Shown in pieces: positions 7,611 through 39,376 of a stretch of DNA of 64,000 bases. The notes under the pieces are model-generated. The model ran no database searches, was not told the DNA's origin, and saw only the letters and a program-made list of their open reading frames with translations. This stretch comes from an uncultured Chloroflexia bacterium (GTDB taxonomy: Bacteria; Chloroflexota; Limnocylindria; Limnocylindrales; CSP1-4): positions 1 to 64,000 of the forward strand of contig CAVTHS010000005.1 of NCBI GenBank assembly GCA_963734535.1, written 5' to 3'. A program made the position numbers and the translations under genes. Numbering within the stretch: position 1 is the first letter of the stretch; each line of letters begins with the position of its first letter.

Positions 7611-11046
<3,436 letters not shown>

Positions 11047-17486: not shown

Positions 17487-17569
17487 CCCGCGACCTGTGG
17501 TTGGTTGCGACGCAACGGGTCGCGTGCCCCGGCCAGCGGGCCGCTGACGGCGATGGAGGGCGCGAGCGC

Positions 17570-18983: not shown

Positions 18984-19064
18984 CAACAGGCCGAATGGCA
19001 CTTCGGACGGTGCGTCGGCCTGTGGCACAGTCCAAACGCATGGATGTCAGACGACTAGCGTCTG
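18984..19064 (+). promoter_or_regulatory. Composite ~85-bp regulatory element, copy 1 (upstream of the aminotransferase-transketolase-PLP operon)
   Basis: CAACAGGCCGAATGGCAC...TGTGGCACAGT...GGATGTCAGACGACTAGCGTCTG aligns with 30809-30894(-) and 31217-31300(+). Confidence 0.8.
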
Positions 19065-19135
19065 AGCCGGGAGCGGACCGGAGCCGTGCCGCGCACGCGG
19101 TCCCGGCAAACCTGAACCCCCTGGAGGCGTCAGAG

Positions 19136-22728: not shown

Positions 22729-22790
22729 CCTCGGACCCGCTCATGGCCATTACCCACATCCAGCAGCCAGAACGTCCGGAGGAGCACCCC

Positions 22791-24290
22791 ATGCAGCCAC
22801 TCGAACTCGAACGGAACGTCACGGATGCGAGCGTCTACGACAACACGATCGCGCGGTTTCGCGAGGCTCGGATCGGGCTCCCAACGTTCGCGCAGCTCGC
22901 CGACCCCTCCCTGATCCCGGCGAAGATCCGTGCGTCGCTCGCCGAGGTGGGACCCGACGAGGCGCACCCCCTGAACCTGTTCCGGGTCAACTGGTTCAAC
23001 GACGACGCACGCCGCGGCCTCGCGCCGGTGCCCGGCCACGTCGTCCTCCCCAAGGCGCTCACCGGGGTGGACGCGCGCATCGTCGTCGCCTTCGGCGACC
23101 GGTTCCCGATGATCGGAGCCCACAAGGTGCTGGCCGCGTATGGGTGCCTGGTGCCGCGCGTCATCACGGGCCAGTTCGACCCGACGCGTCACCGCGCGAT
23201 CTGGCCGTCGACCGGCAACTACTGCCGCGGCGGGGTCGCGATCTCGCGGATCATGGATTGCCGGGGCGTGGCCGTGCTGCCGGAGGGCATGAGCCGGGAG
23301 CGCTTCGCCTGGCTCGAGGACTGGGTCGTCGATCCGTCCGACATCATCCGGACGCCCGGCACGGAGAGCAACGTCAAGGAGATCTACGACCGCTGCAAGG
23401 AGCTCGCCGCCGACCCGGAGAACGTGATCTTCAACCAGTTCTCGGAGTTCGGCAACTACATCGCCCACTACCTGGCCACCGGGTCTGCGCTGCTGAACGT
23501 GTTCGACGCCCTCCACGACGAGGAGCCGGAGCTTCGCCTGCGGGCCTTCGTCTCGGCGACCGGTTCGGCCGGGACCATCGCCGCGGGCGACTTCCTCAAG
23601 GAGCATGCCGGCTCGCTCACCGTGGCGGTCGAGGCGCTGGAATGCGCGACGATGCTCCGCAACGGGTTCGGCGAGCACAACATCCAGGGGATCGGCGACA
23701 AGCACATCCCGTTCATCCACAACGTCATGGCGACGGACGTGGTGGTCGCGGTCTCCGACCGGGCGACCGACCGCCTGGGCGTCCTCTTCAACACGGAGAC
23801 CGGCCGCGCGTACCTCGGCGGGCGGCGGGACGTGCCGAGCGAGGGCATGGACGCCCTTCCGTCCCTGGGCCTCTCGAGCATCGCCAACATCCTCGGCGCG
23901 ATCAAGACCGCGAAGTACTACGACATGGGCCCCGACGACGTGATCGTCACCGTGGCGACCGACGGTGCGGCCATGTACGGGAGCGAGCGGGACCTGGCCC
24001 TGGGCAAGTACTTTGCGGGTGACTTCGACGAGGTGGCCGCCGGGGAGGTCTTCGGTGAGCACCTGCTCGGCGCCACGACCGACCACCTGCTGGAGCTCTC
24101 GCGGGAGGACCGCGAGCGGATCTTCAACCTGGGCTACTTCACGTGGGTCGAGCAGCAGGGGATGTCGATCGAGGAGTTCCGGATCCGCAAGGATCCCGGC
24201 TTCTGGAAGGACCTTCCCACCATCGTGACCGACTGGGACCGGATGATCGAAGAGTTCAACGCCCGGACGGGAGCCCTGGAGGCGGGATGA
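22791..24290 (+). CDS. Fold-type II PLP enzyme (cysteine synthase/Trp synthase beta-like)
   Basis: GAHKV (PLP lysine), [19 protein letters not shown]; GGAGGAG RBS. Confidence 0.8.
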
Positions 24291-25681
24291 CAATCCGACC
24301 GGGCGCCATGGCAACCAGCCCCGGGCGCGCCCTCGCCAGCGCCCTGGTCTGCGCCGGGTGCGGCGCCTCGCCGGCGCCCGCCGATCCCTATCCGTTCCGC
24401 TGCCCGAATGCCGGCACCGGCGACGACACCGATCACGTCCTGCGCCGCCTGCTGGACGTCCGCGCCGTCGAGTTCCCGGGCGCCGGCGGCGGCGATGCCA
24501 CTGCCAATCCCTATCTACGCTATCGGCACCTGTTCCATGCCTGGCACGTGGCGCGGGCGGGCGGGATGGACGACGACGTGTACTGCGCGCTGGTCGCCCG
24601 CCTGGACGGCGAGGTCGCGAAGGTCGACGGCCGGGGGTTCGTCCCCACGCCGTTCTCCCGCGCGGGCGCGCTCAGCGACCAGCTCGGGTTCGCCCCGGAC
24701 GGCGGGGTGTGGGTCAAGGACGAGACGGGCAATGTGTCCGGCTCGCACAAGGCCCGCCATCTCTTCGGACTGCTCGTCTACCTGGAAGTGTTGGAGCGAC
24801 TCGGCCGCGCCGACCCTGCCGCCCGGCCCCACCTCGCGATCGCGAGCTGCGGCAACGCCGCGATGGCCGCGGCCGTCGTCGCGGCGGCGGGCCGTCGCGT
24901 GCTGGATGTCTTCGTGCCGGTCGACGCCGATCCCCTCGTCGTGGCCCGGCTGCGGGAGCTCGACGCGCGGGTCAGCGTCTGCCCGCGCGAGCCCGGCGTC
25001 GCCGGCGACCCGACCTATCACCGGCTCCGCGCGGTGCTCGCCGAGGGCGCCCTCCCCTTCACCTGCCAGGGCAACGAGAACGGGCTCGCGGTCGAAGGCG
25101 GGTTCACGCTCGGGTACGAGATGGCAACCGCCCTCGCGAACGGCCCGGAACTGGATCGGCTCGTGGTCCAGGTGGGCGGCGGCGCGCTCGCGAGCGCCTG
25201 CATCGAATCCATCGACGACGCGGTCGCCCTGGGGGCGCTCTCGCGAGCGCCCCGCTTCAACGCGGTGCAGACGGAGGGTGCCTGGCCGCTGCGCCGGGCG
25301 TTCGACCGGCTCGCCGCGCGTCTGCCGGCCGGCGCGACGCCCGACGACCTCCGCGAGGCGCTCGCGTACGCCGCGACACACCGGTCCGCCTTCATGTGGC
25401 CGTGGGAGGAGGAGCCCCGGAGCGTCGCGCACGGGATCCTCGACGACGAGACCTACGACTGGCTCGCGGTGGTCGAGGGGATGCTGCGCACAGGGGGGAG
25501 TCCCGTCGTGGTGGGCGAGGAGGTGCTCGTGCACGCCAACGAGCTCGCCGTGAGCACCACGGGCATCGATGTCGACCCGACCGGCTCATCAGGGCTTGCC
25601 GGGCTGCTCGCCCTCCGCGACCGGGGAGACGTCGGCGACCACGAACGAGTCGGCGTCCTCTTCAGCGGCGTCCGGCGCTAG
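24287..25681 (+). CDS. Threonine synthase-like fold-type II PLP enzyme
   Basis: N-terminal CAGC...[30 protein letters not shown]; ATGA overlap with the upstream gene. Confidence 0.8.
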
Positions 25682-27263
25682 CGTCCGATTCGTCGGCCGG
25701 GGCGGGGGCGTCTGGGCGCACCCCGGCCATCATCATGCCGATCTCCTCGCGAGTGGCCGTCCGCGGGTCCGCCGAGCCGATGATCGTCCCCTCGTACATC
25801 ACGAGGATGCGGTCCGAGATGGTCATGACCTCGTCGAGATCCTCGGAGATGATCACCGTCGCGGTACCACTGTCGCGTTGCGCGACGAGGCGCTGGTGGA
25901 TGTACAGCGAAGCGGACACGTCGATTCCCCGCGTCGGTTGGGCGACCAGGAGGACGTCGGGCTGGCTCGAGAGCTCCCGGGCCATGATCAGCTTCTGGAT
26001 GTTGCCGCCGGACAGGCTCCGCACCGGCGTCTCCAGGTTCGGCGTCTTCACGTTGAACGCGGCAACCAGCTCGTCGCAGTGCCGGCGGATGGCCCGGGTT
26101 CGCAGGAATCCGAAGCGGCAGAACGCGCGGCTGCCGTAGTCCACCAGCAGGAGGTTCTCGCCGACGCTGAAGTCGGCGACGACGCCGTCCCGCATGCGCT
26201 CCTCCGGCACATACCCGAGTCCCGCCGACCGGATCGCGGCAGGGCCGTGTCCCGCCAGCTCGGCCCCGTTCAGCATGATCGAGCCGCTCGTAGGGGGCCG
26301 GAGCCCGGCGATCGCCTCGGCGAGCTCCCGTTGGCCGTTGCCCGCGACCCCGGCGATCCCCACGAGCTCGCCCGAGCGGACCTCGAAGCTGACGCCGCCG
26401 ACGGCCTCGGTTCCCCGATCGGCCTCGACGCGGAGATCAGTCACGACGAGCCGGCTGGCGCCGGCGACACCCCTCGGCGGAGGCTCCTCGGCAGCCACGT
26501 GGTGCCCGACCATCATCTCCACGAGCCGCTCGCGGGTCGCCTCGGCGGCGGGCAGCGTGCCGACCACCCGGCCGTTGCGAAGCACGGTGATGCGGTCCGA
26601 CAGGTCCAGCACCTCGTGGACCTTGTGCGAGATGAAGACGAGGCCGCGCCCGCTCCTGGTCATCTGGCGCAGGACGGCAAAGAGGTCCTTCACCTCCCGC
26701 GGTGTCAGGACAGCCGTCGGCTCGTCGAGCACCAGCAGCTCCACGTCGCGATAGAGCGCCTTGATGATCTCCACGCGCTGCCGCTCGCCGACGGAAAGCT
26801 GCCAGACGAGGGCCCGCGGGTCAACCCGGAGACCGTACGTCTCCGAGAGCTCGTTGATGCGCGCGGAGACCGTCTCGAGGCCGGTCAGCGGCCCGCGCGT
26901 GGACCGGCTGCCGAGCGCGACGTTCTCGGCGACGGTGAGCGTGTCCACCAGCATGAAGTGCTGGTGGATCATCCCGATCCCATGTCGGATCGCGCTCGAG
27001 GGCGAGCCGATCGCGACCCGGTGACCGTTGATCCTGATCTCGCCCTCGTCCGGCCGGTAGAGCCCGTAGAGCACGCGCATGAGCGTGCTCTTCCCGGCGC
27101 CGTTCTCGCCAAAAAGCGTGTGGACCTCTCCGGCCCGGACGTCGAAGTCGACCGCGGCGTTGGCGACCACCCCGGGAAAGCGCTTGGTGATCCCGCGCAT
27201 CTCCAGGATCGGGACCCCGGCAACGCCGGTCGCGTCCCCCGGGGTGGTCGCCGCCACGGTCAT
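25662..27263 (-). CDS. Nucleoside/sugar (CUT2) ABC transporter ATP-binding protein
   Basis: [39 protein letters not shown]; two ATPase domains. Confidence 0.93.
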
Positions 27264-27284
27264 CGTTCCTGACTTACCCGTGGA

Positions 27285-28379
27285 TCACTGCGGAACCGTG
27301 ACGGACCCGTCGGTGATCCCCTTGATCAGCGAGTCGGCCTTTGCCTTCACCTCGGCGGGCAGGTTGAACCCGGGATTGAAGTCGATCTTCGCTCCACCGT
27401 TGGCGAGGGTCGCCGTGAAGGTCGTGCCGCCGAGCTTGCCGCCCTGGATGTCGGTGAGGATCTCCCCGACGATCGGGGACCAGTCGTAGACCTGGCTGGA
27501 GACGACGTTGGACTGGGCGAGGGACACCTGCGTCCACTGCGTCCCGAACCACGGAAGATTGTTCGTCTTGGCGACGCCGATCGCCCCGACGACGGCCTGC
27601 GCCGTGCCCGTCAGCACGTCGGCCTTGTTGGCGACGAACGTCGTCGCGGCCGCGGACATCAGGCTGACGTCGCTGAAGGAACCAGTGTAGACGGGGATGC
27701 AGCTGATCGAGGACGCCACGGACTTGGCGCCCGCACAGAACCCATCGACGTAGAGCTTGGCATCACCGACGGCGATCGGGCCGATGACCCCCAGCACCTT
27801 CGACTTGCTGAGCATCGCCGCCATCGCGCCCTGGACGTAGCCGCCTTCGTTCGAGTTCACCTGGTAGGCAAACACGTTCGGGAGATCGTAGGTGGATCCC
27901 GCGGTGCCCCAGGCGAACGAGACGTTCGGGAACTTGGGCGCCAGCTGCTGGATCGTCGATCCGTACTGGGACCCGTGGGCGACGATCAGGTTGAAGCCCT
28001 GCGTGGCGTAGGTCTGGATCACGTTCGCGGCGGTTGCCACCACGAACTGGTTGTCGGAGACGGCGATCTCCAGGTTGTACTTCCCCTTGAGCGAGTTGAG
28101 CGCCTCGACCATCGACTGGGTGAAGGCAAGGTCATTGACCGCGCTCGGCGCGATCAGGGCCACCTTGAGCGTGGTAGCGGCGGCGCTCGGGCTGGGCGCG
28201 GTCGACGGGGCTGCGGCGGCGCTCGGGCTGGGCGCGGTCGACGGGGCTGCGGCGGCGCTCGGGCTGGGCGCGGTCGAGGCGGGCGCGGGGGTGCTGCTGC
28301 TGCCACAGGAGGCGGCGACCAGCGCCACCAGCACGGCGGGCAGGATGAGCGAGAGCCTGTGGTCTGGGTGTCTATGCAT
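27285..28379 (-). CDS. BMP-family ABC substrate-binding lipoprotein (purine nucleoside type)
   Basis: Lipobox VAASC; NDLAFTQS, LIVAHGSQY, EGGYVQGAMAA, YTGSFSD. Confidence 0.88.
   Translation of the reverse strand: MHRHPDHRLSLILPAVLVALVAASCGSSSTPAPASTAPSPSAAAAPSTAPSPSAAAAPSTAPSPSAAATTLKVALIAPSAVNDLAFTQSMVEALNSLKGKYNLEIAVSDNQFVVATAANVIQTYATQGFNLIVAHGSQYGSTIQQLAPKFPNVSFAWGTAGSTYDLPNVFAYQVNSNEGGYVQGAMAAMLSKSKVLGVIGPIAVGDAKLYVDGFCAGAKSVASSISCIPVYTGSFSDVSLMSAAATTFVANKADVLTGTAQAVVGAIGVAKTNNLPWFGTQWTQVSLAQSNVVSSQVYDWSPIVGEILTDIQGGKLGGTTFTATLANGGAKIDFNPGFNLPAEVKAKADSLIKGITDGSVTVPQ
28177..28277 (+). repeat. 36-bp tandem repeat (~2.8 copies) encoding the linker APSTAPSPSAAA
   Basis: GCGGCGGCGCTCGGGCTGGGCGCGGTCGACGGGGCT repeated in frame within the BMP gene. 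Confidence 0.9.
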
Positions 28380-28459
28380 CGTGATCTCCTTCGGAGGGAT
28401 CCTGGGTCGGGTTCGCGCTTCCGAGCGCTGGGGCAGTGGGGACGGGCACTCGATTCGCG

Positions 28460-29392
28460 TCAACCCTCCCTCTCGTATGGTCTGCCAAGAGCGGCCGGCT
28501 GCCGGAACCGACGGGCGAGGAAGAGCAGCGCCAGGACCGTGATGACCGCGGGCGCGGTCGCAGCGAGGTCGGATGCGTTGAGGGGAATGATCCCGAGCGA
28601 CTTCCAGGTGAGGATGACCACCCCGACGAGCCCGTACAGCAGCGCCCCGCCCATGACCCCCACCGGTCGCCACGCGCCGAAATAGACGAGCGCAACGGCA
28701 ATGAACCCCTCGGCCTGGGTCAGGTTCACCTGGAAGATTCCGCCGTACATGAGGAGGCTCGCGCCGGCGAGTCCCGAAAAGGTGGACCCGATGATCAGGG
28801 TGGACCAGCGAATCCGGGCGACGCTGACGCCAAGGCTGTCCGCAGCGGCCGGGTTCTCCCCCACCGCCCGGATCTTCAGCCCGTAGGTCGTGCGGTTGAG
28901 GACGAAGGAGACGACGGGGACCAGCAGGAAGGCCAGGTAGACGAGCAGGCTCTGCCGGAAGAACATCCCGCCGATCACAGGGACGCCCTCGAGGAGCGGG
29001 ATCCCGACCGGCGGCAGCGTGGCGATCGGCAGCGGCGTGCCGACGAGCTTCTGGAAGAGCAGCGCGCTGAAGCCGAGGCCGAAGAGGTAGACCCCGATGC
29101 CGCTGATGCCCTGTTCCGCCTTGAGCGTCACGCTCACGAGGGCCGTGACCACGCCCATCACCGTGCCCGTGGCCGCGCCCGCAAGGACGGCCAGGATGAG
29201 GTTGCCCGTCTTCAGCGCCGTGTAATACGTGGCGAAGGCGGCCAGGAGCATGATCCCGTCGACGCCGAGGTTGATGACCCCGCTTCGCTGGCCGATGGTC
29301 TCGCCGAGCGCGGCAAGCAGGAACGGCGTCGCGAGCGCGATCCCGGATGCGACGGTGACCGTGAGGACGTCGACCGTGAAGAACTGGTTCAT
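28460..29392 (-). CDS. Nucleoside ABC transporter permease
   Basis: LAALGETIGQRSGVINLGVDG, RAVGENPAAADSLG, GFIAVALVYFGAWRP. Confidence 0.9.
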   Translation of the reverse strand: MNQFFTVDVLTVTVASGIALATPFLLAALGETIGQRSGVINLGVDGIMLLAAFATYYTALKTGNLILAVLAGAATGTVMGVVTALVSVTLKAEQGISGIGVYLFGLGFSALLFQKLVGTPLPIATLPPVGIPLLEGVPVIGGMFFRQSLLVYLAFLLVPVVSFVLNRTTYGLKIRAVGENPAAADSLGVSVARIRWSTLIIGSTFSGLAGASLLMYGGIFQVNLTQAEGFIAVALVYFGAWRPVGVMGGALLYGLVGVVILTWKSLGIIPLNASDLAATAPAVITVLALLFLARRFRQPAALGRPYEREG

Positions 29393-30594
29393 TCGCCGCC
29401 TCGTCCATCGGCGATCGGAAGCGACGTGCTGTCGGGCGGGCGCGGCGGGCGGGCGGCTCGAGGGCCCGCGAGCGTGATCGTCCGGGCGCGCGCGCGCCGG
29501 CGCAGGTACTCGAGCGAGACGACAAGGACGACGACGATCCCGCTGAGGGCGGTGACGAGGTCGGAGGGCACGCCGGTGGCGACCTGGAGCGCCGAGCCAC
29601 CCACGATGAGACCACCGAAGAAGAACGCCGAGAAGATGGTCCAGAGCGGATTGAGGCCGCCGAAAAGCGCGACAACGATGCCGTTGAAGCCGGCGGACCC
29701 CGTGAACCCGGTCAGGCTCCCATCCGTCACCATCCGGTGCGAGATGCTGCCGAAGACCAGGATCGCGCCGGCGATCCCGCACATCGCCCCGCTCAGGGTC
29801 ATCGCCATCGTGATCGTCCGTTTCACGGGCATGCCGGCATACGCCGAGGCACTCCGCGAGAGGCCGACGCTCCGGATCTGGAACCCGAAGCTGGTGCGCC
29901 ATAGCAGGACGTACACGCAGACCGCCACGAGCACCGCGATCGGCACGCCCAGGTGCAGCTGCGTGCCCGGGACCAGGATGGGCAGCTGCGAATTCGGCGA
30001 CAGGATCTTCGTCTCGGGGATGAGACCGCCGACCGAATCCGGCGACTGGTCGACCATTGGCCCGGCCAGCAGGAAGTTCATGACCTGGACGGCGACGAGG
30101 TTGAGCATGATCGTGCTGAGGATCTCGTTGACGTTGTAGTTTGCCTTGAAGATGCCCGGTATGGCGCCCCAGATGGCGCCGCCCGCGGCACCGGCAAGGA
30201 GCACGAGCGGGATCAGGACGACGCTCGGCAGATCGGGGAGCGCGAGGGCGGTCGCCGCCCCAGCCAATCCGCCCATCGCGATCTGGCCCTCGCCGCCGAT
30301 GTTGAAGACGTTGGCCCGGAACGCGATGCAGATCCCGACCCCGACGAGGAGCAGGGGAACCGCCTGGATCGCGGTGCTGCTCAGCGCGTAGCTTCCGCCG
30401 AACGCCCCTTTCAGGAGCGCGACATAGCCGGTGACCGGGTTTGCGCCGAGGACCAGCATCATCACGGCGCCGAGCAGCAGGGCGACGACGAGCGCCGATG
30501 GGATCGCGAACCAACTGAGCAAGAACCGACCCAGATTCGCGCGGCGGTCGGCGACGGTCACGCCCATCAGCCGGTCGGCTTCACGTTCGCTCAT
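29389..30594 (-). CDS. Nucleoside ABC transporter permease
   Basis: FRANVFNIGGEGQ, NEILSTIMLN, GFNGIVVALFGGLNP. Confidence 0.9.
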   Translation of the reverse strand: MSEREADRLMGVTVADRRANLGRFLLSWFAIPSALVVALLLGAVMMLVLGANPVTGYVALLKGAFGGSYALSSTAIQAVPLLLVGVGICIAFRANVFNIGGEGQIAMGGLAGAATALALPDLPSVVLIPLVLLAGAAGGAIWGAIPGIFKANYNVNEILSTIMLNLVAVQVMNFLLAGPMVDQSPDSVGGLIPETKILSPNSQLPILVPGTQLHLGVPIAVLVAVCVYVLLWRTSFGFQIRSVGLSRSASAYAGMPVKRTITMAMTLSGAMCGIAGAILVFGSISHRMVTDGSLTGFTGSAGFNGIVVALFGGLNPLWTIFSAFFFGGLIVGGSALQVATGVPSDLVTALSGIVVVLVVSLEYLRRRARARTITLAGPRAARPPRPPDSTSLPIADGRGGE

Positions 30595-30808
30595 GCCCGC
30601 CCCTGGTGTGACCGGAGAGCAGCTCGCCCCCTCGTCCACAGCTTCCGCGAAGGCGCTGGAAGAACGAGTCCTCGCGGCGACCTCGCGAACAGGGCACGGC
30701 GCGGGTCGCGGATGCGGATGGGTCTCGGATGGCTCGGGCAGCCGAATCTGGGACACGAGATTGGTGCTGGCGAGAAGCGTCGCATCACCGAATTTCTCAC
30801 CCCAGGCG

Positions 30809-30894
30809 CCAGACGCTAGTCATCTGACATCCCCTCCGAGCCTGCATTGTGGCATGGGGCGGCAAGCGGCTCCCCAGTGCCATTCGGCCCGTTG
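30809..30894 (-). promoter_or_regulatory. Composite regulatory element, copy 2 (upstream of the nucleoside ABC operon)
   Basis: Minus strand CAACGGGCCGAATGGCACTGGGGA...TGCCACAATGC...GGATGTCAGATGACTAGCGTCTGG. Confidence 0.8.
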
Positions 30895-31216
30895 TCTCGG
30901 TCGTCGGCGCCGGCGGACGGTCGTCCGAACGGGCAGACCGGCACCGACGGACGCCCGGGTCGAGGCAGGTCCGTGCCCGGCTCGATCGACTGGCCGGGCA
31001 GTCTCGACTGGGGCAGACTCGCCCCGGCCAGCCCCGGCGAGGGCGCGCGCCGTCGCCCACCGGACGCGACGAGACCGTCTCAGGGTCGCGGCTCCTCCCC
31101 GGCGTCCCATTGCGCAGCCGCCGGACCTCCGCGGCGTCATCGGGCGCGAGCACGCGCCCGGCACCGGGCCGTGGTGCCATGGGGTCTCGGCGGCACGGCC
31201 TGGGCGCCATCGGGCG

Positions 31217-31300
31217 CAACGTGCCGAATGGCACTGGGGACGGCGTCGGTGGGCTGTGGCACAATGCGAACAGGGTGGATGTCAGATGACTAGCGTCTGG
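31217..31300 (+). promoter_or_regulatory. Composite regulatory element, copy 3 (upstream of gntR and the carbamoyltransferases)
   Basis: CAACGTGCCGAATGGCACTGGGGA...TGTGGCACAATGC...GGATGTCAGATGACTAGCGTCTGG. Confidence 0.8.
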
Positions 31301-31433
31301 CACCGGGAGTTGCGGATCGTGATGCGACGGCTCTCATCAAGACCAGCATCGTGCGCCGGATCCGGCCGCCCTTCGTGGCCCGCGATGCTGCCACGCGACC
31401 CTGCGGCCGACGACACGGAGACGAGGCGGGTGC

Positions 31434-32252
31434 ATGGTTCGCCGTAACCTGACCCTGGCCCGGCAGGCGGCCCAGGAGGTCATGGAAGGGATCCACTCCG
31501 GGGCACTGGCCGGCGACGACGGCCTGCTGCCGTCGGAAGCCGCGCTCAGCCAGCGGATCGGCGTGAGTCGTGCCACCCTTCGAGAGGCGCTCTCGCAGCT
31601 GGAGCAGGGCGGCTTCATCGTCCGCCGTCATGGGATCGGAACCTTCGTCAGTCCCCGCCACCCCCTCGTGGTGGCCGGGCTCGAGGAGCTCCAGAGCATC
31701 GAAACCCTCGCGCAGCGGACCGGGGTGGAGATCCACATGGGCACGTGCGAGATCCGGGAGCGAGCCGCCGACCCGGGCGAGGCCGAGGCCCTGGAGATCG
31801 CCGCGGGGACGCCGGTTCTCGCCGTCGAACGCGTGATGCTGTCGGGCGATCGTCCGATCGCCTTCCTCATCGACGTGGTCCCGACCGATATCCTGGACGC
31901 CGTGGACCTGGGGGACGCATTCGACGGGTCGGTGCTGGACCTCCTCCTGCGACGCGGCGATCCCCCGCTGAAGCACTCCCACACGGAGCTGGTCGCCGAG
32001 GCGGCGGACAGCGGCCTGGCGAAACGCCTGCGCCTGCGGGTCGGCGACCCGCTTCTCACGTTCACGGCGCGGCTCGTCGCCACGAGTGGGCGGGTCGTGG
32101 ACTACTCGGTCAGCTACTTCAGCCCAGGTCACTTCCGCTTCCATGTCATTCGTCGCGTCAACCAGCTCTCGCCGCAGGTTCCGGAGGTTCCCGGGGCGCG
32201 CGGGCAAGCGGCTGACCTTGTCGTGGCGGCGCCGCTCGAGGCACGCGTATGA
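31434..32252 (+). CDS. GntR family (HutC/UTRA) transcriptional regulator
   Basis: LPSEAALSQRIGVSRATLREAL...RRHGIGTFV winged HTH followed by a UTRA domain. Confidence 0.92.
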   Translation: MVRRNLTLARQAAQEVMEGIHSGALAGDDGLLPSEAALSQRIGVSRATLREALSQLEQGGFIVRRHGIGTFVSPRHPLVVAGLEELQSIETLAQRTGVEIHMGTCEIRERAADPGEAEALEIAAGTPVLAVERVMLSGDRPIAFLIDVVPTDILDAVDLGDAFDGSVLDLLLRRGDPPLKHSHTELVAEAADSGLAKRLRLRVGDPLLTFTARLVATSGRVVDYSVSYFSPGHFRFHVIRRVNQLSPQVPEVPGARGQAADLVVAAPLEARV

Positions 32253-32339
32253 GGCGCGCCGGCGCAGGTGTTCGAGGCCAGAGAAGGGTCGGAAGAATGG
32301 TTCTTTCGGCGATTCCGTTGAACCCATAGAAAGGGGCAC

Positions 32340-33296
32340 ATGATGCGTAGCTTTGCCGGCCGCGACATCCTCTCGCTGAAGGACTTCAGCCGGGACGAGT
32401 ACTTCCGCGTCTTCCAGGTCGCCGACGACCTGCGGCCGTTCGCGCGCGATCGCCGCAACACGGACCTGCTCAAGCACAAGACGCTCCTGACCGCGTTCTA
32501 CCAGCCGAGCACCCGGACGCGGCTCTCCCACGAAGCCGCCATGCATCGCCTCGGCGGCCACGTCCTGGGCTTCTCCGACTCGAAGATGACCCGGGCCGGC
32601 GACTTCTACCAGGAGTCGATCAAGGACACCTTCCACATGCTGGAGTACTACGCCGACGTCATCGCGATCCGGCACTTCCAGCAGGGCGCCCCGGCGGAGG
32701 CGGCGAAGTGGTCGTCCGTGCCGGTCATCAACTGCGGCGACGGCTGGGGCGAGCATCCCACCCAGGTGCTGACCGATCTCTACACGGTCCTCCGCGAGAA
32801 GGGGACGCTCGACGGGCTGACCTACCTGCTGGTCGGCGACATGCGGATGCGGACGATGCACTCGATCCTGTACGCGCTGAGCCAGTTCGACGCCAAGGCG
32901 ATCGTCGTGGGCCCGCCTGACATGAGCCTGCTGCCGGAGTTCAAGGCGGAGATCGACGAGCTCAACGTCGACTACGTCGAGGCGGGCGACGTCCGCGACG
33001 TCATCGGCGAGGCGGACGTGATCTACATGGAGCCCGTCGTCCAGGCCGACTACACGTCATCGCGCGTGGAGCGCGGCGACAAGGTTGGTCTGACCCCGCC
33101 CGAGTACTGCGTCACGCGCGAGCTGCTGCGCGACAAGGGCAAGCGCAGCTCGATCATCCTCCACTCCCTGCCGCGCATGGACGAGCTGCTGCCCGACGTC
33201 GACGCGACGCGCCACCAGCGCTACTGGGCAGAGGCCTTCAACGGCGTCGCGCTCAAGATGTCGCTCCTCAGCCTGATCCTCGGCGCGGCGGAGTAG
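32340..33296 (+). CDS. Aspartate carbamoyltransferase-like protein
   Basis: FYQPSTRTRLS, ESIKDT, IRH, NCGDGWGEHPTQVLTD, VGD, HSLPR. Confidence 0.82.
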   Translation: MMRSFAGRDILSLKDFSRDEYFRVFQVADDLRPFARDRRNTDLLKHKTLLTAFYQPSTRTRLSHEAAMHRLGGHVLGFSDSKMTRAGDFYQESIKDTFHMLEYYADVIAIRHFQQGAPAEAAKWSSVPVINCGDGWGEHPTQVLTDLYTVLREKGTLDGLTYLLVGDMRMRTMHSILYALSQFDAKAIVVGPPDMSLLPEFKAEIDELNVDYVEAGDVRDVIGEADVIYMEPVVQADYTSSRVERGDKVGLTPPEYCVTRELLRDKGKRSSIILHSLPRMDELLPDVDATRHQRYWAEAFNGVALKMSLLSLILGAAE

Positions 33297-33302
33297 GCGG
33301 CC

Positions 33303-34280
33303 ATGCAGACGGACCTTCGCGGCCGCGACCTCATCAGCCTCCAGGAATGGACGAAGGAGGAGATCGACACCGTCCTCGAGGTCGCCCTCCAGCTGAAGCG
33401 CGAGCGGGCGCTCGGGATCCCGCACCCGCTCCTGCGGGATCGCGTCCTGGCCATGCTCTTCTTCTTCTCCTCCACCCGAACGCGCGCCTCGTTCGAGGCG
33501 GGCATGGCCCAGCTGGGCGGCCATGCCCAGTTCATCGAGAGCCGCACCACCCAGATCTCGCATGGCGACACGCCGAAGGAGATCGGCGAGATCCTGGGCC
33601 GCTACAACGACGGGATCGCCATCCGGAACGTCGACTGGGGCGTCGGGAACCAGTACATCCGGGACGTGGCTGCGGCCAGCCGCGTGCCCGTCCTCAACAT
33701 GCAGTGCGACCTGTTCCACCCGCACCAGTCGCTCGCCGACCTGCTCACCATCCACGAGAAGAAGGGCAATCCCCGGGGACGCACGATCGCGATCAGCTGG
33801 GCCTACGCAGCCAGCTACCAGAAGCCGATCAGCGTGCCCGTGGACCTCTCGCTCCTCACGACCCGCTACGGGATGCACGTCCGGCTGGTCCATCCGCCGG
33901 AGTTCAAGCTCCCTGCCGACATCGTCGCGCAGGCGGCGGAGAATGCACGGCGGTCGGGCGGCAGCTTCGAGCTGATGGACGACTTCGACGCCGGCATGGC
34001 GGGCGCGGACGTCGTGTACGCGAAGAGCTGGGGCGCCATGCTCACGGCCAAGGACGAGACCGAGGGCGCCGAGATCGCCAGGAAGTACACGGACTGGATC
34101 ACCGACGAGCGGCGGATCGGCCTCGCGGCCGAGGACGCGATCTACATGCATCCGCTTCCCGCCGACCGCGGCGTCGAGGTGGCCGACGCGGTGATCGATG
34201 GGCCCCACTCGGTGGTCTACGACGAGGCCGAGAACCGGCTCCACGCCCAGAAGGCGGTCATGGCCCTCACGATGCGGTAG
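33303..34280 (+). CDS. YgeW-like carbamoyltransferase (ornithine/aspartate carbamoyltransferase family)
   Basis: SSTRTRASF, QISHGDT, NMQCDLFHPHQ, SWAYAASYQKPISVP (recalls YgeW WAYSPSYGKPLSVP), YAKSW, MHPLPAD. Confidence 0.82.
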   Translation: MQTDLRGRDLISLQEWTKEEIDTVLEVALQLKRERALGIPHPLLRDRVLAMLFFFSSTRTRASFEAGMAQLGGHAQFIESRTTQISHGDTPKEIGEILGRYNDGIAIRNVDWGVGNQYIRDVAAASRVPVLNMQCDLFHPHQSLADLLTIHEKKGNPRGRTIAISWAYAASYQKPISVPVDLSLLTTRYGMHVRLVHPPEFKLPADIVAQAAENARRSGGSFELMDDFDAGMAGADVVYAKSWGAMLTAKDETEGAEIARKYTDWITDERRIGLAAEDAIYMHPLPADRGVEVADAVIDGPHSVVYDEAENRLHAQKAVMALTMR

Positions 34281-34302
34281 CGCATCGGCATCGCCACGGG
34301 TC

Positions 34303-35109
34303 TCAGCGCGCGGCACTTGGCCGAACACGGCCCGGGCGCGCGGCCCTGAGCTGCGCGCCCCCTGCATCTGTCCAGACCAGCCCCGGAACGCGGGGCATCG
34401 CACACGTCGGGTCGTCGAGCGCGCGCAGCCACTCGCTTCCCGCGGCCGGGAAGCGAGCCCGGAAGAGCGGCGCCAGCTCGAGGACGAGCGCCCGGTTTCG
34501 GCGGGTACCCCGGATGACCCACGCTCCGGCGACCGTCCAACCTGGCAGCCTGCGTCTCACCGCCGCCACCTTCTCGTCGAAGGATCGCATGGCCTGGCCG
34601 ACGTCGAGCAGGAGATCCCAGATCTCGAACACCGCGGCTTCCCGGGATCCGGTGCGAGTGGTGAGCACATCGATGACGCGACCGGTCGATCCCACGACGA
34701 CCGGCATCTCCGGCGCGACGGCCCACGATCCGGCGGAAGCCCGCTCCACGATGGCGCTCTGGCGCCGCAGGTGCTCGATGTCGCGGGGCGGATCAGCTCC
34801 GGGCGCCCGGTCGAGGAATCCGACGAGCTCCTGGCCAACGGTGGCAGCGGCAATCGCCCACGTCGCGAGCGGTGCGCTGGCACCGAGCCCGCGCTCGAGG
34901 TTGCTCCATCGGGCCTGGCTCAGGCGCGCGCTCGCCGCGCAATCCCGCTGGGTCCTGCCGGTGTGCGCGCGGGCATCCCTGAGCGCGACGCCCAACCGAG
35001 CCGCAACGTGGTTTGCACGACGCCGTCCGGCGAGCACCTCCCGGGTGGCCCGTCGCTTCGGTCCCGGGGGGCTGGTCGCACGCGGGCCCTCGTCAAGGTC
35101 AGTCGCCAT
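34303..35109 (-). CDS. XRE-type helix-turn-helix protein with a C-terminal PD-(D/E)XK-like domain
   Basis: LRDARAHTGRTQRDCAASARLSQARWSNLERG HTH; C-terminal E...IDVL...AVFEIW pattern. Confidence 0.65.
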   Translation of the reverse strand: MATDLDEGPRATSPPGPKRRATREVLAGRRRANHVAARLGVALRDARAHTGRTQRDCAASARLSQARWSNLERGLGASAPLATWAIAAATVGQELVGFLDRAPGADPPRDIEHLRRQSAIVERASAGSWAVAPEMPVVVGSTGRVIDVLTTRTGSREAAVFEIWDLLLDVGQAMRSFDEKVAAVRRRLPGWTVAGAWVIRGTRRNRALVLELAPLFRARFPAAGSEWLRALDDPTCAMPRVPGLVWTDAGGAQLRAARPGRVRPSAAR

Positions 35110-35456
35110 ATCAACGCCATGATTACCGGACGGGCTTTGCCCCGGCTTATCCGGGTTCCGCCGACGGCCGGGCCCTTCGGCACCGCCCGAACCCGGGTCG
35201 GCCGAGCGTCGCGTGCCTGGATGTCGGCGCCCTCAGCGGCCTCGGGCCAGCGTGCAACCGGGCCGCGGCTCTGTCGGCGCGCGTCTCGCCCGGATTCCTG
35301 TCGGCGAGTGACGGGGTTGATACGTCGATAGGTTCGTTCGACCAGGGCCCACGCGACGAGCGTCGCCCGCGGCCTCCCTCGCAGTGACGCCGCCTGAAGG
35401 CGTCCCGCCGGCGGCCCGCAGAGGGGCCCCACCGGTCCCATGCCGCCAGCGGTCCT

Positions 35457-36809
35457 TCAGAAGGCCTCGAGGTAGCGGTCCAGCTCCCACTGGGTGACCT
35501 GGGCGCGGTATTCGTCCCATTCGGCCTGCTTGGCATCGAGGTAGTGCTCGAGCACGTGCTCCCCGAGCGCGTCGCAGATGACCGGGTCGGACTTGAGCTC
35601 CTCGAGCGCGTCGCCCAGCGTTCCCGGAAGCTCCTTGATCCCGCGCTCGGTGACGCGCGCGGCATCCATCTCGAAGAGCGACTCCTCGACCGGGTCGGCG
35701 AGCGTGAGACCGTTCTCGACGCCGTCGAGACCCGCCGCGATCATCACGGCGAACGCGAGGTAGGCGTTCGAGGACGGGTCCGGGCAGCGCACCTCGGCGC
35801 GGGTGCCCTCGATGGACTTGCCCGGCGAGATCATGGGGACGCGGATGAGCGCCGAGCGGTTCGTGCGGCCCCACGTGATGTAGGTCGGCGCCTCGTACCC
35901 CGGCACCAGGCGCTTGTACGAGTTCACCGTGGGCGCGAGGATCGCGACCATCGAGCGCGCATGGGCCAGGATCCCGGCCATGTACGAGCGGGCCAGGTCC
36001 GAGAGCCCGTACTTGTTGGCGGGATCGGCGAACGCGTTCCGCTTGTCGGCGATCGAGTACAGGCTCTGGTGCGTGTGCATGCCTGAGCCGTTGATCCCGA
36101 AGATGGGCTTGGGCATGAACGTGGCGTAGAGGCCGTGCTGCTGGGCGATCGCCTTGAGCGCAAACTTGAAGGTCACGGCGTTGTCGGCCGTGCGAAGCGC
36201 GTCCGAGTACTCGAAGTCGATCTCGTGCTGACCCGCGGCGACCTCGTGATGGGCGGCCTCCACCCTGATCCCGAAGGCCTCGAGCGCATCCACCATGTCC
36301 TGGCGGACCTCCTGCGCGAGGTCGGTCGAGAAGTCGAAGTAGCCCGCCAGGTCGTGCGGGAGCGGCGCGACCTTGCCGTTCGCGTCGCGGTTGAAGAGGA
36401 AGAACTCCAGCTCCGGCCCCATGTTGACGATGAAGCCGAGCTTCCTGGCGCGCTCGACCTGTCGGCGCAGGACGAAGCGCGGGTCGCCCACGAACGGCTC
36501 ACCGCGCGGCGTGAAGACGTCGCAGATGATGCGGGCGGTGCCCCGGGGACCGCTCGCCGGCTGCCACGGGATCTCCGCATACGTGCTCATGTCCGGCATC
36601 AGGTACTGGTCCGACTCGGCGATCCGGGTGAATCCCTCGATCGAGGACCCGTCGAACCACGTCCCGTGCTTGACCGAGCTCTCCAGCTGGTGGATCGGGA
36701 TCGTGACTGCCTTGACGATCCCCAGGACGTCGGTGAACTGGAGCTGGATGAACCGGATCCCGTCCGCCTGGGCCTTCTTGATGATCGCGAGCGCGGCGGA
36801 CTCGGCCAC
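35457..36809 (-). CDS. glnA: Glutamine synthetase type I
   Basis: LQFTDVLG, FDGSSIEGF, GPELEFF, HHEVAAGQHEI, TFMPKP...NGSGMH, NSYKRLVPGYEAP, EVRCPD; GGAGG RBS before GTG. Confidence 0.95.
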   Translation of the reverse strand: MAESAALAIIKKAQADGIRFIQLQFTDVLGIVKAVTIPIHQLESSVKHGTWFDGSSIEGFTRIAESDQYLMPDMSTYAEIPWQPASGPRGTARIICDVFTPRGEPFVGDPRFVLRRQVERARKLGFIVNMGPELEFFLFNRDANGKVAPLPHDLAGYFDFSTDLAQEVRQDMVDALEAFGIRVEAAHHEVAAGQHEIDFEYSDALRTADNAVTFKFALKAIAQQHGLYATFMPKPIFGINGSGMHTHQSLYSIADKRNAFADPANKYGLSDLARSYMAGILAHARSMVAILAPTVNSYKRLVPGYEAPTYITWGRTNRSALIRVPMISPGKSIEGTRAEVRCPDPSSNAYLAFAVMIAAGLDGVENGLTLADPVEESLFEMDAARVTERGIKELPGTLGDALEELKSDPVICDALGEHVLEHYLDAKQAEWDEYRAQVTQWELDRYLEAF

Positions 36810-36904
36810 CTTAACCTCCTCGAGCAGGGACGGGCATGCGGGGCCCGCCGCTCACGTGTGTCGTTCGAACGTCACCAGCGACGATCGACCGTCGGGCGGC
36901 CCCG

Positions 36905-36913
36905 AGGATAGCA
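36905..36913 (-). promoter_or_regulatory. Candidate extended -10 (TGCTATCCT) for glnA
   Basis: TG-n-TAnnnT about 95 bp upstream of the start; no clear -35. Confidence 0.35.
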
Positions 36914-37048
36914 GCGGATACCCACGGGAACCACGCGCGATCGCTCCCCCCGCCGCGAACGTCGGACGCGCTCGAGACGTTCGGAGCCCCTCCGGCCGAG
37001 GCTCGAAGAGGCTCCGGGAACGGATGCGCGCGGACCGAGCCCGCCGGC

Positions 37049-39196
37049 TCAGTACTGGAACAGCAGCTCGCGATACTTGGGAAGCGGCCAGAGGTCATCG
37101 GACACGAGCGCCTCGAGCTCGTCGGCCACGGCGCGCACGTCGTTCTGGGCGGGGATGACCTTGACGCAGAACGCCGTCGCCTCGGCCTGCACCGAGCTGG
37201 CGCCGTGGGCGGCATGCTGTGCCGCCTCGAGCACGTGGATCGCGTCCACGAGCCCGTCCGCGAGGGCTGCCACCCTGTCCGCGACGGCAGCCACGCCCTT
37301 CGATCGCCCGGACGCAGCCGCGAGCTCGCCAAGGTACCGGGCGGCCGCGGGCAGGATCATGGTGGTTGCCATGTCCAGGGTGCAGTTGGCTTCGATGTTC
37401 TGCACCTTGACGTAGCGCTCCCAGTTGATCTCGACGCGTGCGGCGAGCTCCCGCTCGGAGAGCACGCCGAACTTCGAGAACAGCGCCTTGGCCTTCGGCG
37501 TCGTCAGGGCGGGGAGCGCGTCGACGGTCGACTTGTTGTTGGGCAGCCCACGCTTGGCAGCCTCCGCGTGCCACTCGTCGGCGTAGTTGTTACCTTCGAA
37601 CAGGACCTGCTTGTTCTTCCCGACGATCCCGGACAGGATCGTGGTCAGCCCCTCGAAGTCGCCGTGCTCGAGCTTCTCGAGCTCGTCGGCAAGCTTGGCC
37701 AGCGAGTCGGCCACCGCGGTGTTGAGGACGGTCTGGGGCCAGTAGATCGGGGCCGACGAGCCGACCGCGCGGAACTCGAACTTGTTGCCCGTGAACGCGA
37801 ACGGCGACGTCCGGTTGCGGTCGGTGGCGTCCTTCGGCAGGACCGGCAGCGACGTGACGCCGAGCTCCAGGGACCCGCCCTTCTTGGAGGCGGACGCGGC
37901 GCCCTTCTCCAGCTGCTCGATGACATCCTCGAGCTGCGAGCCGAGGAAGATCGAGACGATGGCCGGAGGCGCCTCGTTCGCGCCCAGCCGGTGGTCGTTG
38001 CCGGCGTCGGCGATGCTCGCGCGCAGGAGGTCCGCGTGGACGTTGACGCCGCGGATGACCGCGACCAGGAAGGCGAGGAACTGCGCGTTCGCGTGCGGGT
38101 CGTGGCCTGGATCGAGGAGGTTCTCGCCTTCGTCCGTGGCCATCGACCAGTTGTTGTGCTTGCCCGAGCCGTTGATCCCGGCGAACGGCTTCTCGTGGAC
38201 CAGGAACATCAGGTCGTGCTGGCGCGCGAGGCGCCGCATCATGCTCAGGACGACCATGTTGTGGTCGGATCCGACCGACGTCGGCTCGTAGACCGGGGCC
38301 ATCTCGAACTGGGCGGGCGCCACCTCGTTGTGGCGCGTCTTGGACGGGATGCCCATCCGCCAGAGCTCGCGATCGAGGTCCATCATGAACGCGAGCATCC
38401 GCTCGCGGATGGTGCCGAAGTACTGGTCCTCCAGCTCCTGGCCCTTGGGCGACGGGGCGCCGAAGAGCGTGCGGCCGGTCAGGACGAGGTCGGGGCGCTG
38501 CTCCGCCAGGCGTCGGTCGACCAGGAAATACTCCTGCTCCGGACCGATGTTGGTGAACACGCGGCTCGCGGTCGTGTTGTCGAACCAGCGGAGCACGCGC
38601 AGGGCCTGCGTGCCGAGCGCCTCCTGTGAGCGCAGCATCGGGATCTTGTGGTCCAGCGCCTCGCCGGTGTACGAGACGAACGCCGTCGGGATCGTCAGCG
38701 TCACGCCGTTCGGCTCGACCTGCAGGAAGATCGGGCTGGTGAGGTCCCAGGCGGTGTAGCCACGGGCCTCGAAGGTGGACCGGATGCCGCCGGACGGGAA
38801 CGAGCTCGCATCGGGCTCGCCCTGGAGGAGGTTCCTGCCGGAGAACTCGGCAACCGTCCGGCCGTCGCCGGTCGGGTTGAGGAACGAGTCGTGCTTCTCG
38901 GCCGTGGAGCCGGTCATCGGCACGAACCAGTGGGTGTAGTGGGTCGCCCCGTGGGAGAGCGCCCATTCCTTGACGCCGTGCGCGACCGCGTCGGCGATCA
39001 CGGAGTCGAAGGGCTCGAGGCCGTCGATCGTGCGGCGCAGCCGCCGCAGGATCGGCCTGGGCAGGTACTGCCGCTGGGCGACCTCGTCGAACACGTAGCT
39101 GCCGTAGATCTCCTCGCCGGCGTGCTCGAGATAGTCCTGGGTGGAGGCGACGCGGTGGTTGGAGATCGCCTCGATGGCCGTGGTTCGAGCGGTCAT
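37049..39196 (-). CDS. Glutamine synthetase type III
   Basis: GATHYTHWF...TAEKHDSF, EPDASSFPSGG, ARGYTAWD, GPEQEYF, NGSGKHNNWS, DRNRTSPFAFTGNKFEFR, WPLPKY. Confidence 0.95.
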   Translation of the reverse strand: MTARTTAIEAISNHRVASTQDYLEHAGEEIYGSYVFDEVAQRQYLPRPILRRLRRTIDGLEPFDSVIADAVAHGVKEWALSHGATHYTHWFVPMTGSTAEKHDSFLNPTGDGRTVAEFSGRNLLQGEPDASSFPSGGIRSTFEARGYTAWDLTSPIFLQVEPNGVTLTIPTAFVSYTGEALDHKIPMLRSQEALGTQALRVLRWFDNTTASRVFTNIGPEQEYFLVDRRLAEQRPDLVLTGRTLFGAPSPKGQELEDQYFGTIRERMLAFMMDLDRELWRMGIPSKTRHNEVAPAQFEMAPVYEPTSVGSDHNMVVLSMMRRLARQHDLMFLVHEKPFAGINGSGKHNNWSMATDEGENLLDPGHDPHANAQFLAFLVAVIRGVNVHADLLRASIADAGNDHRLGANEAPPAIVSIFLGSQLEDVIEQLEKGAASASKKGGSLELGVTSLPVLPKDATDRNRTSPFAFTGNKFEFRAVGSSAPIYWPQTVLNTAVADSLAKLADELEKLEHGDFEGLTTILSGIVGKNKQVLFEGNNYADEWHAEAAKRGLPNNKSTVDALPALTTPKAKALFSKFGVLSERELAARVEINWERYVKVQNIEANCTLDMATTMILPAAARYLGELAAASGRSKGVAAVADRVAALADGLVDAIHVLEAAQHAAHGASSVQAEATAFCVKVIPAQNDVRAVADELEALVSDDLWPLPKYRELLFQY

Positions 39197-39260
39197 GTGA
39201 CTCCTACCTGGTTGATGGGCGCGTGCTCCGCCTGCCTGGGACCGGATCGGCGCGGCGCGG

Positions 39261-39332
39261 CGCGTGAGCGCCGCCCTCGGGCGACGCGTGAGCGACGCCC
39301 CCGGGCGACGCGTGAGCGCCGCCCTCGGGCTA
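39261..39332 (+). repeat. Three tandem 24-bp repeats in the GSIII leader
   Basis: CGCGTGAGCG(C/A)CGCCC(T/C)CGGGC(G/T)A x3; each unit contains a CGCC...GGC(G) inverted repeat. Confidence 0.9.
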
Positions 39333-39376
39333 CGCATGATCGGAACGCGAGGGACGCATCCGGGATCGAGGGGAAG

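Follow-up and report, generated by a model that had tools for sequence, protein, structure and literature searches.

On contig C5 of an uncultured soil Chloroflexia bacterium, two genes for different transcarbamylases lie in tandem on the forward strand, and their products, TC1 and TC2, are the subject of this analysis. The window, i.e. the whole stretch of 64 000 nucleotides that was analysed (G+C content 71%), belongs to a metagenome-assembled genome (MAG) of 3.2 Mb, here G000, and its nearest database proteins carry the label Candidatus Limnocylindrales or Limnocylindria. TC1 (318 amino acids) is encoded at 32340–33296 and TC2 (325 amino acids) at 33303–34280; both match the domain families PF02729 and PF00185, and they are 33% identical across 228 amino acids. 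The TAG stop codon of TC1 ends at 33296 and the ATG of TC2 starts at 33303, leaving a gap of 6 bp, with a GGAG within the 3′ end of TC1; the G+C content at third codon positions of the two reading frames is 0.95–0.96. A GntR/UTRA transcription regulator of the HutC type (31434–32252, forward strand; PF00392 and PF07702) ends 87 bp before TC1, and a homologue stands immediately upstream of TC1 in many of the 30 orthologous loci described below. The initial annotation, made from the window alone, had noted a GntR gene followed by two distinct transcarbamylase genes with 6 bp between them, and both reading frames, their domains and their coordinates were verified. A promoter and terminator scan of 30700–35500 gave 0 sites of both kinds, and an Rfam search of 30000–36000 gave no match.

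By family score, TC1 resembles aspartate transcarbamylase (ATCase) best. It passes TIGR00670 narrowly (248.2 bits versus a cut-off of 236.95) and stays under the cut-off of NF002032 (213.7 versus 263); its structural model (predicted local distance difference test, pLDDT, 91.7) has the ATCase fold, with the Pyrococcus abyssi enzyme 1ml4 as best PDB match. We compared TC1 by alignment with 1ml4 and with 86 representatives from a library of 1.8 billion proteins. The carbamoyl-phosphate motifs are present (STRTR at 57, the β4 arginine R111 and HPTQ at 139), and R167, which binds the α-carboxylate, is retained. In contrast, the 80s and 240s loops are altered: K83-K84 of 1ml4 are replaced by F-Y inside an invariant TRAGDFYQES loop that stands for SSxxKGE, R229 is replaced by P and P266 by S, YMEPVVQADY takes the place of Y-x-T-R-x-Q-x-E-R, and HSLP that of the ATCase motif HP[LG]P. 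The departures from typical PyrB pointed out earlier, YMEPVVQ (residues 229–235) and MRMRTMHS (residues 168–175), are thus both found. In ATCase, K84, R229 and Q231 bind aspartate, R229 and Q231 through its β-carboxylate (Shi et al., 2015, PMC4581275). Judged by its aligned residues, TC1 is a pseudo-ATCase that has lost the cationic aspartate binders K84 and R229, and so would fit an N-α-carbamoyl amino acid without a β-carboxylate. The loop signature marks a large and diverse clade, which is monophyletic (Shimodaira–Hasegawa-like approximate likelihood ratio test, SH-aLRT, 98) in a quick tree of 50 rows that left out further orthologues and held no acetylornithine (AOTCase), succinylornithine (SOTCase) or putrescine transcarbamylase (PTCase) sequences. 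No orthologue among 28 of TC1 and 24 of TC2 departs from STRTR, the β4 arginine, HPxQ and HxLP, and the same holds in a 40-row TC1 and a 23-row TC2 alignment; since the carbamoyl-phosphate residues do not vary, both proteins are probably catalytic.

TC2 is a compact transcarbamylase of the YgeW type, like those of the knotted clade. It scores best as ornithine transcarbamylase (OTCase; 254.6 bits versus 306, and 250 versus 280.85) or as AOTCase (NF003384, 241 versus 288), under every NCBIfam cut-off, and its model (pLDDT 85; best PDB matches 1a1s and 3kzm) has the OTCase/AOTCase fold. The OTCase motifs DxxxSMG and HCLP are replaced by DVVYAKSWG and HPLP; TC2 shares DVVYAKSWGA and a W-x-Y...KP segment with 3kzc. 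Against the YgeW families TIGR03316 and NF005538 it reaches 161.3 bits versus 500 and 174.6 bits versus 453, and its orthologues score 151–206 bits on the YgeW model, whereas true YgeW proteins score 597–760 bits. Compared with the 396-residue YgeW, TC2 is without the N- and C-terminal helices and the 240s-loop insertion of two extra helices, and has HPLP for HCLP (H[AVC]LP). Alignment to Escherichia coli YgeW nevertheless finds Q98, Q160, S200, K203, K270 and L331 retained. Q160, K270, D124, S200, K203 and L331 were proposed as the second-substrate residues of YgeW (Shi et al., 2015, Table 1), and five of these six are present in TC2 (Q134, K241, S171, K174 and L285), D124 being replaced by N109. 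TC2 also clusters with E. coli YgeW, apart from the OTCases, in the quick tree without AOTCase and SOTCase rows (SH-aLRT 96).

The distribution of TC2 points the same way. Among 401 evenly sampled Chloroflexota genomes, true YgeW was found in one and TC2, called at ≥ 55% identity, in 69; TC2 adjoins YgeY in all eight genomes without TC1 that were compared by coordinates. Among 30 genomes with TC1 (see below), 26 hold TC2 at ≥ 64% identity and one a 52% relative; G040 and G056 have no TC2 but a true YgeW (597 and 606 bits), and the last has neither, its TC1 lying at a contig end. By active site, gene context and occurrence, TC2 looks equivalent to YgeW, with the same substrate presumed. When the initial annotation called TC2 YgeW-like, it was right as to the active-site residues and the place beside YgeY; by score TC2 is not a YgeW equivalog. 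TC1 travels with a YgeW-type enzyme, so it must do something else. A different kind of doubled transcarbamylase is seen in other Chloroflexota families, where tandem TC2-like paralogues, 38–48% identical to TC2, lie at G108:C98:1032–3105, G127:C27:87522–89656 and G132:C319:9492–11565.

To place the pair, a scan with one genome per species yielded 30 TC1 orthologues of 64–96% identity, from Chloroflexota (Limnocylindria and Anaerolineae), Actinomycetota, and MAGs labelled Eisenbacteria, Verrucomicrobiia and Phycisphaerae. TC2 was found no more than 10 kb from TC1 in 23 of the 30 loci: immediately downstream in 17, some 2 kb further downstream in two, and divergent across the GntR gene in four; three of the seven remaining loci end right after TC1. 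The pairing of TC1 and TC2 is not due to chance, because it recurs in these 23 loci from several phyla. Other neighbours within the same distance are the carbamate kinase ArcC (21 loci), a CysK-like pyridoxal phosphate (PLP) enzyme that we call PALP1 (14), xanthine dehydrogenase (XDH)-type proteins (nine), HyuA (seven), SsnA (six) and a YgeY homologue (five). At the level of whole genomes, an SsnA-like gene occurs in 29 of the 30, above the family cut-off in 14 of the 29. A Nocardioides MAG, whose TC1 is 73% identical, has the order PALP1-PALP2-SsnA-TC1-TC2-XdhD-HyuA-XDH (locus L054), PALP2 being a second PLP enzyme. Gene order was examined in six congeners, five of which have genes for YgfK-like, SsnA-like and selenium-dependent XDH proteins and then, divergently, PALP1(-PALP2)-TC1-TC2; ArcC follows TC2 directly in three of the six. 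The purine-catabolic context assumed in the initial annotation is therefore real, as seen from the window genes, the congeners, the 30 loci and the SsnA-like genes, and it is that of the reductive (2,8-dioxopurine) purine pathway.

The hydrolase of this pathway, YgeY, was not found in G000 (best score 87 bits versus a cut-off of 321.5), and within the genus none of 42 genomes exceeded the cut-off, the highest score being 104 bits. The initial annotation had suggested looking for an anticorrelation with ygeY across genomes. In its plain form such an anticorrelation was rejected: among the 401 Chloroflexota, 27 have TC1 and 60 have YgeY, and YgeY occurs in 12 of the 27 genomes with TC1 compared with 48 of the other 374. 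YgeY and TC1 both go with the pathway, which explains the higher frequency of YgeY in TC1 genomes; the informative test is conditional on the presence of TC2. Among TC2-positive Chloroflexota, YgeY is present in 42 of 43 genomes without TC1 (41 of 42 if the unpublished genome G226 is left aside), the sole exception being a 58%-complete MAG; in contrast, it is present in 11 and was not found in 15 of the 26 genomes with TC1 (Fisher P = 2e-7, uncorrected for phylogeny). Ten of the 15 are Limnocylindria, and the other five, which are 95–99% complete, fall into four other lineages (G256 and G307; G455; G315; G439), giving at least five lineages overall. The nine Actinomycetota-labelled TC1 genomes show YgeY as a partial match only, in G033. 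YgeY thus looks dispensable only where TC1 exists. The likely history is that TC1 was inserted into a YgeY-TC2-ArcC operon and that YgeY was then lost repeatedly.

ATCase carbamoylates an α-amino group, and enzymes of the OTCase/AOTCase type act on a side-chain nitrogen. This suggests that the ATCase-type TC1 would handle an α-amino carbamoyl group, as in 3-amino-2-ureidopropanoate or 2,3-diureidopropanoate, and that the OTCase/AOTCase-type TC2 would suit the 3-ureido group. In the scheme that we favour, TC2 would be the YgeW counterpart and phosphorolyse one ureido group of 2,3-diureidopropanoate to carbamoyl phosphate. TC1, with its aspartate side-chain pocket rebuilt, would phosphorolyse the remaining one, most likely the N-α (2-ureido) group of 3-amino-2-ureidopropanoate, a step that YgeY performs hydrolytically in E. 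coli. Carbamate kinase would convert each carbamoyl phosphate to ATP, so that up to two ATP per purine could be gained instead of one. That both enzymes are carbamoyl-phosphate-forming members of the reductive purine pathway is highly probable. That they act serially with TC1 at the YgeY step, with the substrates, regiochemistry and ATP yield deduced from comparison, we hold at a probability of roughly 0.55. The fullest version, in which TC1 is a new N-α-carbamoyl-2,3-diaminopropionate carbamoyltransferase, ureido cleavage by it and a minimal YgeW (TC2) is fully phosphorolytic with two ATP per purine, and the arrival of TC1 beside ygeY opened the way to repeated ygeY loss in soil Chloroflexota and Actinomycetota, is more tentative and falls slightly short of even odds. 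A replacement of YgeY by TC1, as first put forward from the window, is partly supported: it agrees with YgeY being missing almost only where TC1 is present, and less well with the frequent coexistence of the two.

The literature leaves room on the regiochemistry. In one report YgeW acts on the 3-ureido and YgeY on the 2-ureido group, with YgeW and YqeA making ATP (Liu et al., 2025, 10.1101/2025.04.24.650524), and in another the assignment is the opposite (Li et al., 2025, PMC12507026). A further account acknowledges as open questions both which ureido group is cleaved first and the stereochemistry (Percudani, 2025).

Several observations weigh against TC1 as the enzyme of the YgeY step. Of the 12 Chloroflexota that retain YgeY beside TC1, ten have it directly upstream of TC1 and one has it between TC1 and TC2; in the 30 cross-phylum TC1 genomes YgeY exceeds the cut-off in eight and gives partial matches in two more. 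Three decarbamoylating enzymes in one operon would be odd if TC1 and YgeY shared a single step. The intermediates were proposed as (R), i.e. D-configured (Liu et al., 2025), while ATCase acts on L-aspartate. YgeX, the diaminopropionate ammonia-lyase, was likewise not found in G000 (best 28.6 bits versus 532), and it is above the cut-off in none of the 30 TC1 genomes; the final step may fall to PALP1 and PALP2 instead, or these may direct diaminopropionate into another route. G000 has 13 matches to Amidohydro_3 (PF07969), which are possible other hydrolases; four of these candidates were scanned for likeness to UacY and gave no NCBIfam name or one below the cut-off. In the window itself, carbamate kinase lies 14.9 kb upstream of the pair, and an ABC transporter and other genes separate the pair from the SsnA block. 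In the quick tree YgeW sits on a long branch, with AOTCase and SOTCase not among the rows. Finally, G000 is 90% complete with 7% contamination, all counts derive from MAGs, and related genomes within the counts are not independent.

The strongest competing explanation keeps TC1 in the same purine pathway and gives it a different carbamoylated substrate, so that it complements YgeY rather than replacing it. The substrate could be ureidomethyl-hydantoin, 5-ureido-dihydrouracil, the opposite enantiomer of a ureido intermediate, or pyrimidine-derived N-carbamoyl-β-alanine or N-carbamoyl-aspartate. YgeY-TC1-TC2(-ArcC) operons, present in 11 of the 12 Chloroflexota that have both TC1 and YgeY and in five of the 30 cross-phylum loci, would make sense on these terms, and the questions of cleavage order and stereochemistry acknowledged by Percudani (2025) give it latitude. 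It leaves unexplained, however, why YgeY is absent from 15 of 26 genomes with TC1 compared with one of 43 without. Moreover, the pathway as published has two ureido groups to remove and no more (Li et al., 2025; Liu et al., 2025; Percudani, 2025). We regard this explanation as unlikely, though one that deserves to be taken seriously, both for the general idea and for the substrates listed.

Could TC1 and TC2 instead form one hetero-oligomer that serves the YgeW step alone, with TC1 as a structural or regulatory subunit? The 6 bp gap, the GGAG in the end of TC1 and the co-directional, adjacent arrangement in 17 of 30 loci would be in keeping with such a complex, and transcarbamylase active sites borrow a loop from the neighbouring chain (Shi et al., 2015). 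Yet 43 of the 69 TC2-positive Chloroflexota do without TC1, and in G040 and G056, which have no TC2, TC1 is accompanied by a true YgeW. In four loci the genes are divergent and not co-transcribed, and the catalytic residues of TC1 are all invariant. A joint enzyme of this kind is improbable.

Still less probable is that TC1, alone or with TC2, cleaves the allantoate of oxidative urate breakdown, like the ureidoglycine carbamoyltransferase (UGTCase) of Rubrobacter. TC1 falls in the same pseudo-ATCase clade, both in our tree and by the criteria of Barba et al. (2013, PMC4016543), and allantoate resembles diureidopropanoate (Percudani, 2025). G000 also encodes, on contig C11, a urate oxidase together with an allantoinase-like protein. 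However, TC1 has HSLP where the UGTCase subgroup has HPLA, no uricase or allantoinase was found near the pair in any locus examined (six congeners and 30 loci), and the conserved neighbours are SsnA, YgfK, HyuA and YgeY. Urate oxidase was found in none of five other TC1/TC2 genomes tested, including the congener G007, and the oxidative allantoate reading was rejected. The C11 cluster (G000:C11:114317–120385, L131) consists of a factor-independent urate oxidase (287 bits versus 168), an amidohydrolase and a hydantoinase/allantoinase-like gene; given the 7% contamination of G000, this contig may be foreign.

A last reading, hinted at by the public naming of TC1 as aspartate carbamoyltransferase, would make it the organism's PyrB. 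G000 has three transcarbamylase genes in total, TC1, TC2 and a true OTCase on contig C1 (401 bits), so that TC1, which passes TIGR00670, is the sole ATCase-like gene of the assembly; carB, pyrD and pyrF are present. PyrR, PyrB and PyrC were not found in G000. The orthologue of a gene that flanks the pyr operon of congener G005 lies 1.2 kb from the end of G000 contig C8; therefore the loss of the pyr operon is an assembly gap. Among 18 congeners surveyed, 12 have intact adjacent TC1-TC2 pairs, in one the pair is truncated at the end of a contig and in three it is broken into frame fragments, and 14 of the 18 show a further N-domain match of PyrB type; the two such matches that were verified (G005 and G007) are pyrB within pyrR-pyrB-pyrC (NF002032, 371–376 bits). 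Transcarbamylase N-domain matches number exactly four in 21 and five in three of the 30 TC1 genomes. The initial annotation had raised the possibility that TC1 is the genome's only PyrB; the congeners hold a separate pyrR-pyrB-pyrC operon besides the pair. With the separate pyrB and the further N-domain matches of its relatives, the contig-end gap that has also taken pyrR and pyrC from G000, the loss of K84 and R229, the sub-cut-off NF002032 score and the catabolic gene context, a housekeeping PyrB role for TC1 was rejected as the least probable of all. The fragmented matches lie at G002:C12, G006:C1 and G012:C6, in assemblies of three, eight and about 10 contigs, and may represent either pseudogenes or indel errors introduced by long-read assembly. 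A second carbamate kinase of G000 adjoins the true OTCase in an arc-type arrangement (C1:46170–49583, L002).

Further upstream, the window is rich in genes that fit purine breakdown. On the forward strand, carbamate kinase of the ArcC/YqeA type (16548–17486; TIGR00746, 362 bits versus 358.25; NF009007, 391 bits) is followed by an amidohydrolase of the 8-oxoguanine deaminase family (17498–18943; NF006055, 634.8 bits versus 532). The initial annotation had placed the kinase in the same cluster as the pair; it is indeed in the window and stands directly after TC2 in relatives, and 'same cluster' was loose wording because of the distance here. Next come a class I/II aminotransferase (18995–20311), a transketolase-like protein of 795 amino acids (20341–22728; PF00456), PALP1 (22725–24290; 521 amino acids), whose gene directly precedes the pair in the majority of congeners, and PALP2 (24143–25681; PF00291, 111.9 bits), a threonine-synthase/dehydratase-like PLP enzyme whose coordinates are those of the longest reading frame, the real start being probably more downstream. 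The aminotransferase and the transketolase-like protein also accompany the pair in G005 and in the Actinomycetota loci L059, L067, L074 and L107, and synteny in relatives extends to PALP2 and to the ABC transporter of the BMP/PnrA (nucleoside) type on the reverse strand (25662–30756), with an ATPase, a binding protein and two permeases.

The SsnA block lies on the reverse strand. It comprises a YgfK-like Fe-S flavoprotein (7611–10133; TIGR03315, 486.7 bits, under the cut-off of 835), which covers the C-terminal 60% of the YgfK model only (positions 408–989), a short SsnA-like amidohydrolase of 341 amino acids (11163–12188; NF005540, 257.8 bits, under the cut-off of 444; model positions 57–340), and a protein of the selenium-dependent xanthine dehydrogenase family (12185–14947; TIGR03311, 948 bits versus 830). 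The short SsnA-like form recurs in at least six other genomes. A guanine-deaminase-like amidohydrolase follows (14959–16338, reverse strand; TIGR02967, 321 bits, under the cut-off of 375), and a xanthine-dehydrogenase-type molybdopterin subunit resembling PucD (958–3273, forward strand) was assigned by family match. The statement that no pyr, car or arg genes are nearby stands for pyrC, carA/B and arg genes, none of which is among the about 50 window reading frames scanned; the pyrI family was not searched for.

Downstream of TC2, the 1.2 kb at 34281–35456 hold a single weak reading frame (34303–35109, reverse strand) with no family match; in relatives this position is occupied by carbamate kinase. 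Beyond it, convergent with the pair, a type I glutamine synthetase (529 bits) and one of type III stand back to back at 35457–39337 (reverse strand), and ammonia capture beside a nitrogen-releasing pathway is a plausible role for them. Elsewhere in the genome (G000:C8:245754–253521, L130), an F420-dependent LLM oxidoreductase (TIGR03842, 440 bits) and a dihydropyrimidinase/D-hydantoinase (560 bits) share a locus with a class-III aminotransferase and with an Amidohydro_3 gene that is matched in two separate frames. This looks like an F420-type reductive pyrimidine/hydantoin cluster and is perhaps the F420 reductase cluster named for Chloroflexota by Li et al. (2025), whose text, as far as it was available, mentions Chloroflexota clusters only for the F420-type reductase.

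Among known systems, the module of YgeW, YqeA and YgeY in E. coli and Clostridium sporogenes is closest. Its neighbours SsnA, XDH-type, YgfK-type, HyuA and carbamate kinase are shared, the proposed substrate residues of YgeW and its place beside YgeY are taken by TC2, and in both cases carbamoyl phosphate would presumably be handed to carbamate kinase for ATP. The locus differs in its extra transcarbamylase TC1, in that no YgeY or YgeX was found in the genus, and in its two other PLP enzymes. A pseudo-ATCase like TC1, from Nocardioides sp. JS614, has been described as subgroup 2; its gene neighbours a ygeW homologue, xdhABC and hyuA, and it was given no function (Barba et al., 2013). The Nocardioides MAG locus L054 shows the same layout. 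TC1 shares with it H[ST]LP, the loss of RxQ, STRT and HPTQ, and the neighbourhood of ygeW homologue, xdh and hyuA; in our alignments the positions R230–Q232 are PVV, in contrast to the published GX[SC]. The subgroup 1 enzyme Rxyl_2847 of Rubrobacter xylanophilus, the ureidoglycine carbamoyltransferase, is likewise ATCase-derived, purine-catabolic, accompanied by carbamate kinase and directed at one of two ureido groups; it belongs, however, to an oxidative pathway with allantoate as substrate, and TC1 has neither its HPLA motif nor its uricase and allantoinase neighbours.

The arginine and agmatine deiminase pathways follow a common logic, ureido phosphorolysis to carbamoyl phosphate and then ATP via carbamate kinase. 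They use one OTCase or PTCase per substrate, whereas here two transcarbamylases would act serially on one molecule. A hydrolase and a transcarbamylase, UacY and YgeW, are also alternatives at the other ureido step (Li et al., 2025). The exchange that we propose is of the same kind, irreversibility being traded for ATP, and would lie at the YgeY/TC1 step; unlike a plain swap, YgeY and TC1 often coexist. No proposal of a second phosphorolytic step was found in the texts read on the pathway and on pseudo-ATCases. On this survey, the gene pairing has been known since 2013 and the pathway is known, and what is new is the role proposed for TC1.

The reductive purine pathway was worked out as recently as 2025, in gut bacteria, and as published it gains a single ATP from each purine. 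If the serial action of TC2 and TC1 is true, a second, ATCase-derived transcarbamylase would double this yield and add a new transcarbamylase specificity, and the 'pseudo-ATCases' still named aspartate carbamoyltransferase in databases would gain a function. The fold logic, in which ATCase-like enzymes would take the 2-ureido and OTCase/AOTCase-like enzymes the 3-ureido group, would bear on the dispute over the target of YgeW, and the pair gives a way to approach the question of which ureido group is cleaved first. It also suggests, for strains engineered to degrade urate, an alternative module that conserves more energy. The pathway itself would then reach the abundant soil Chloroflexota and Actinomycetota.

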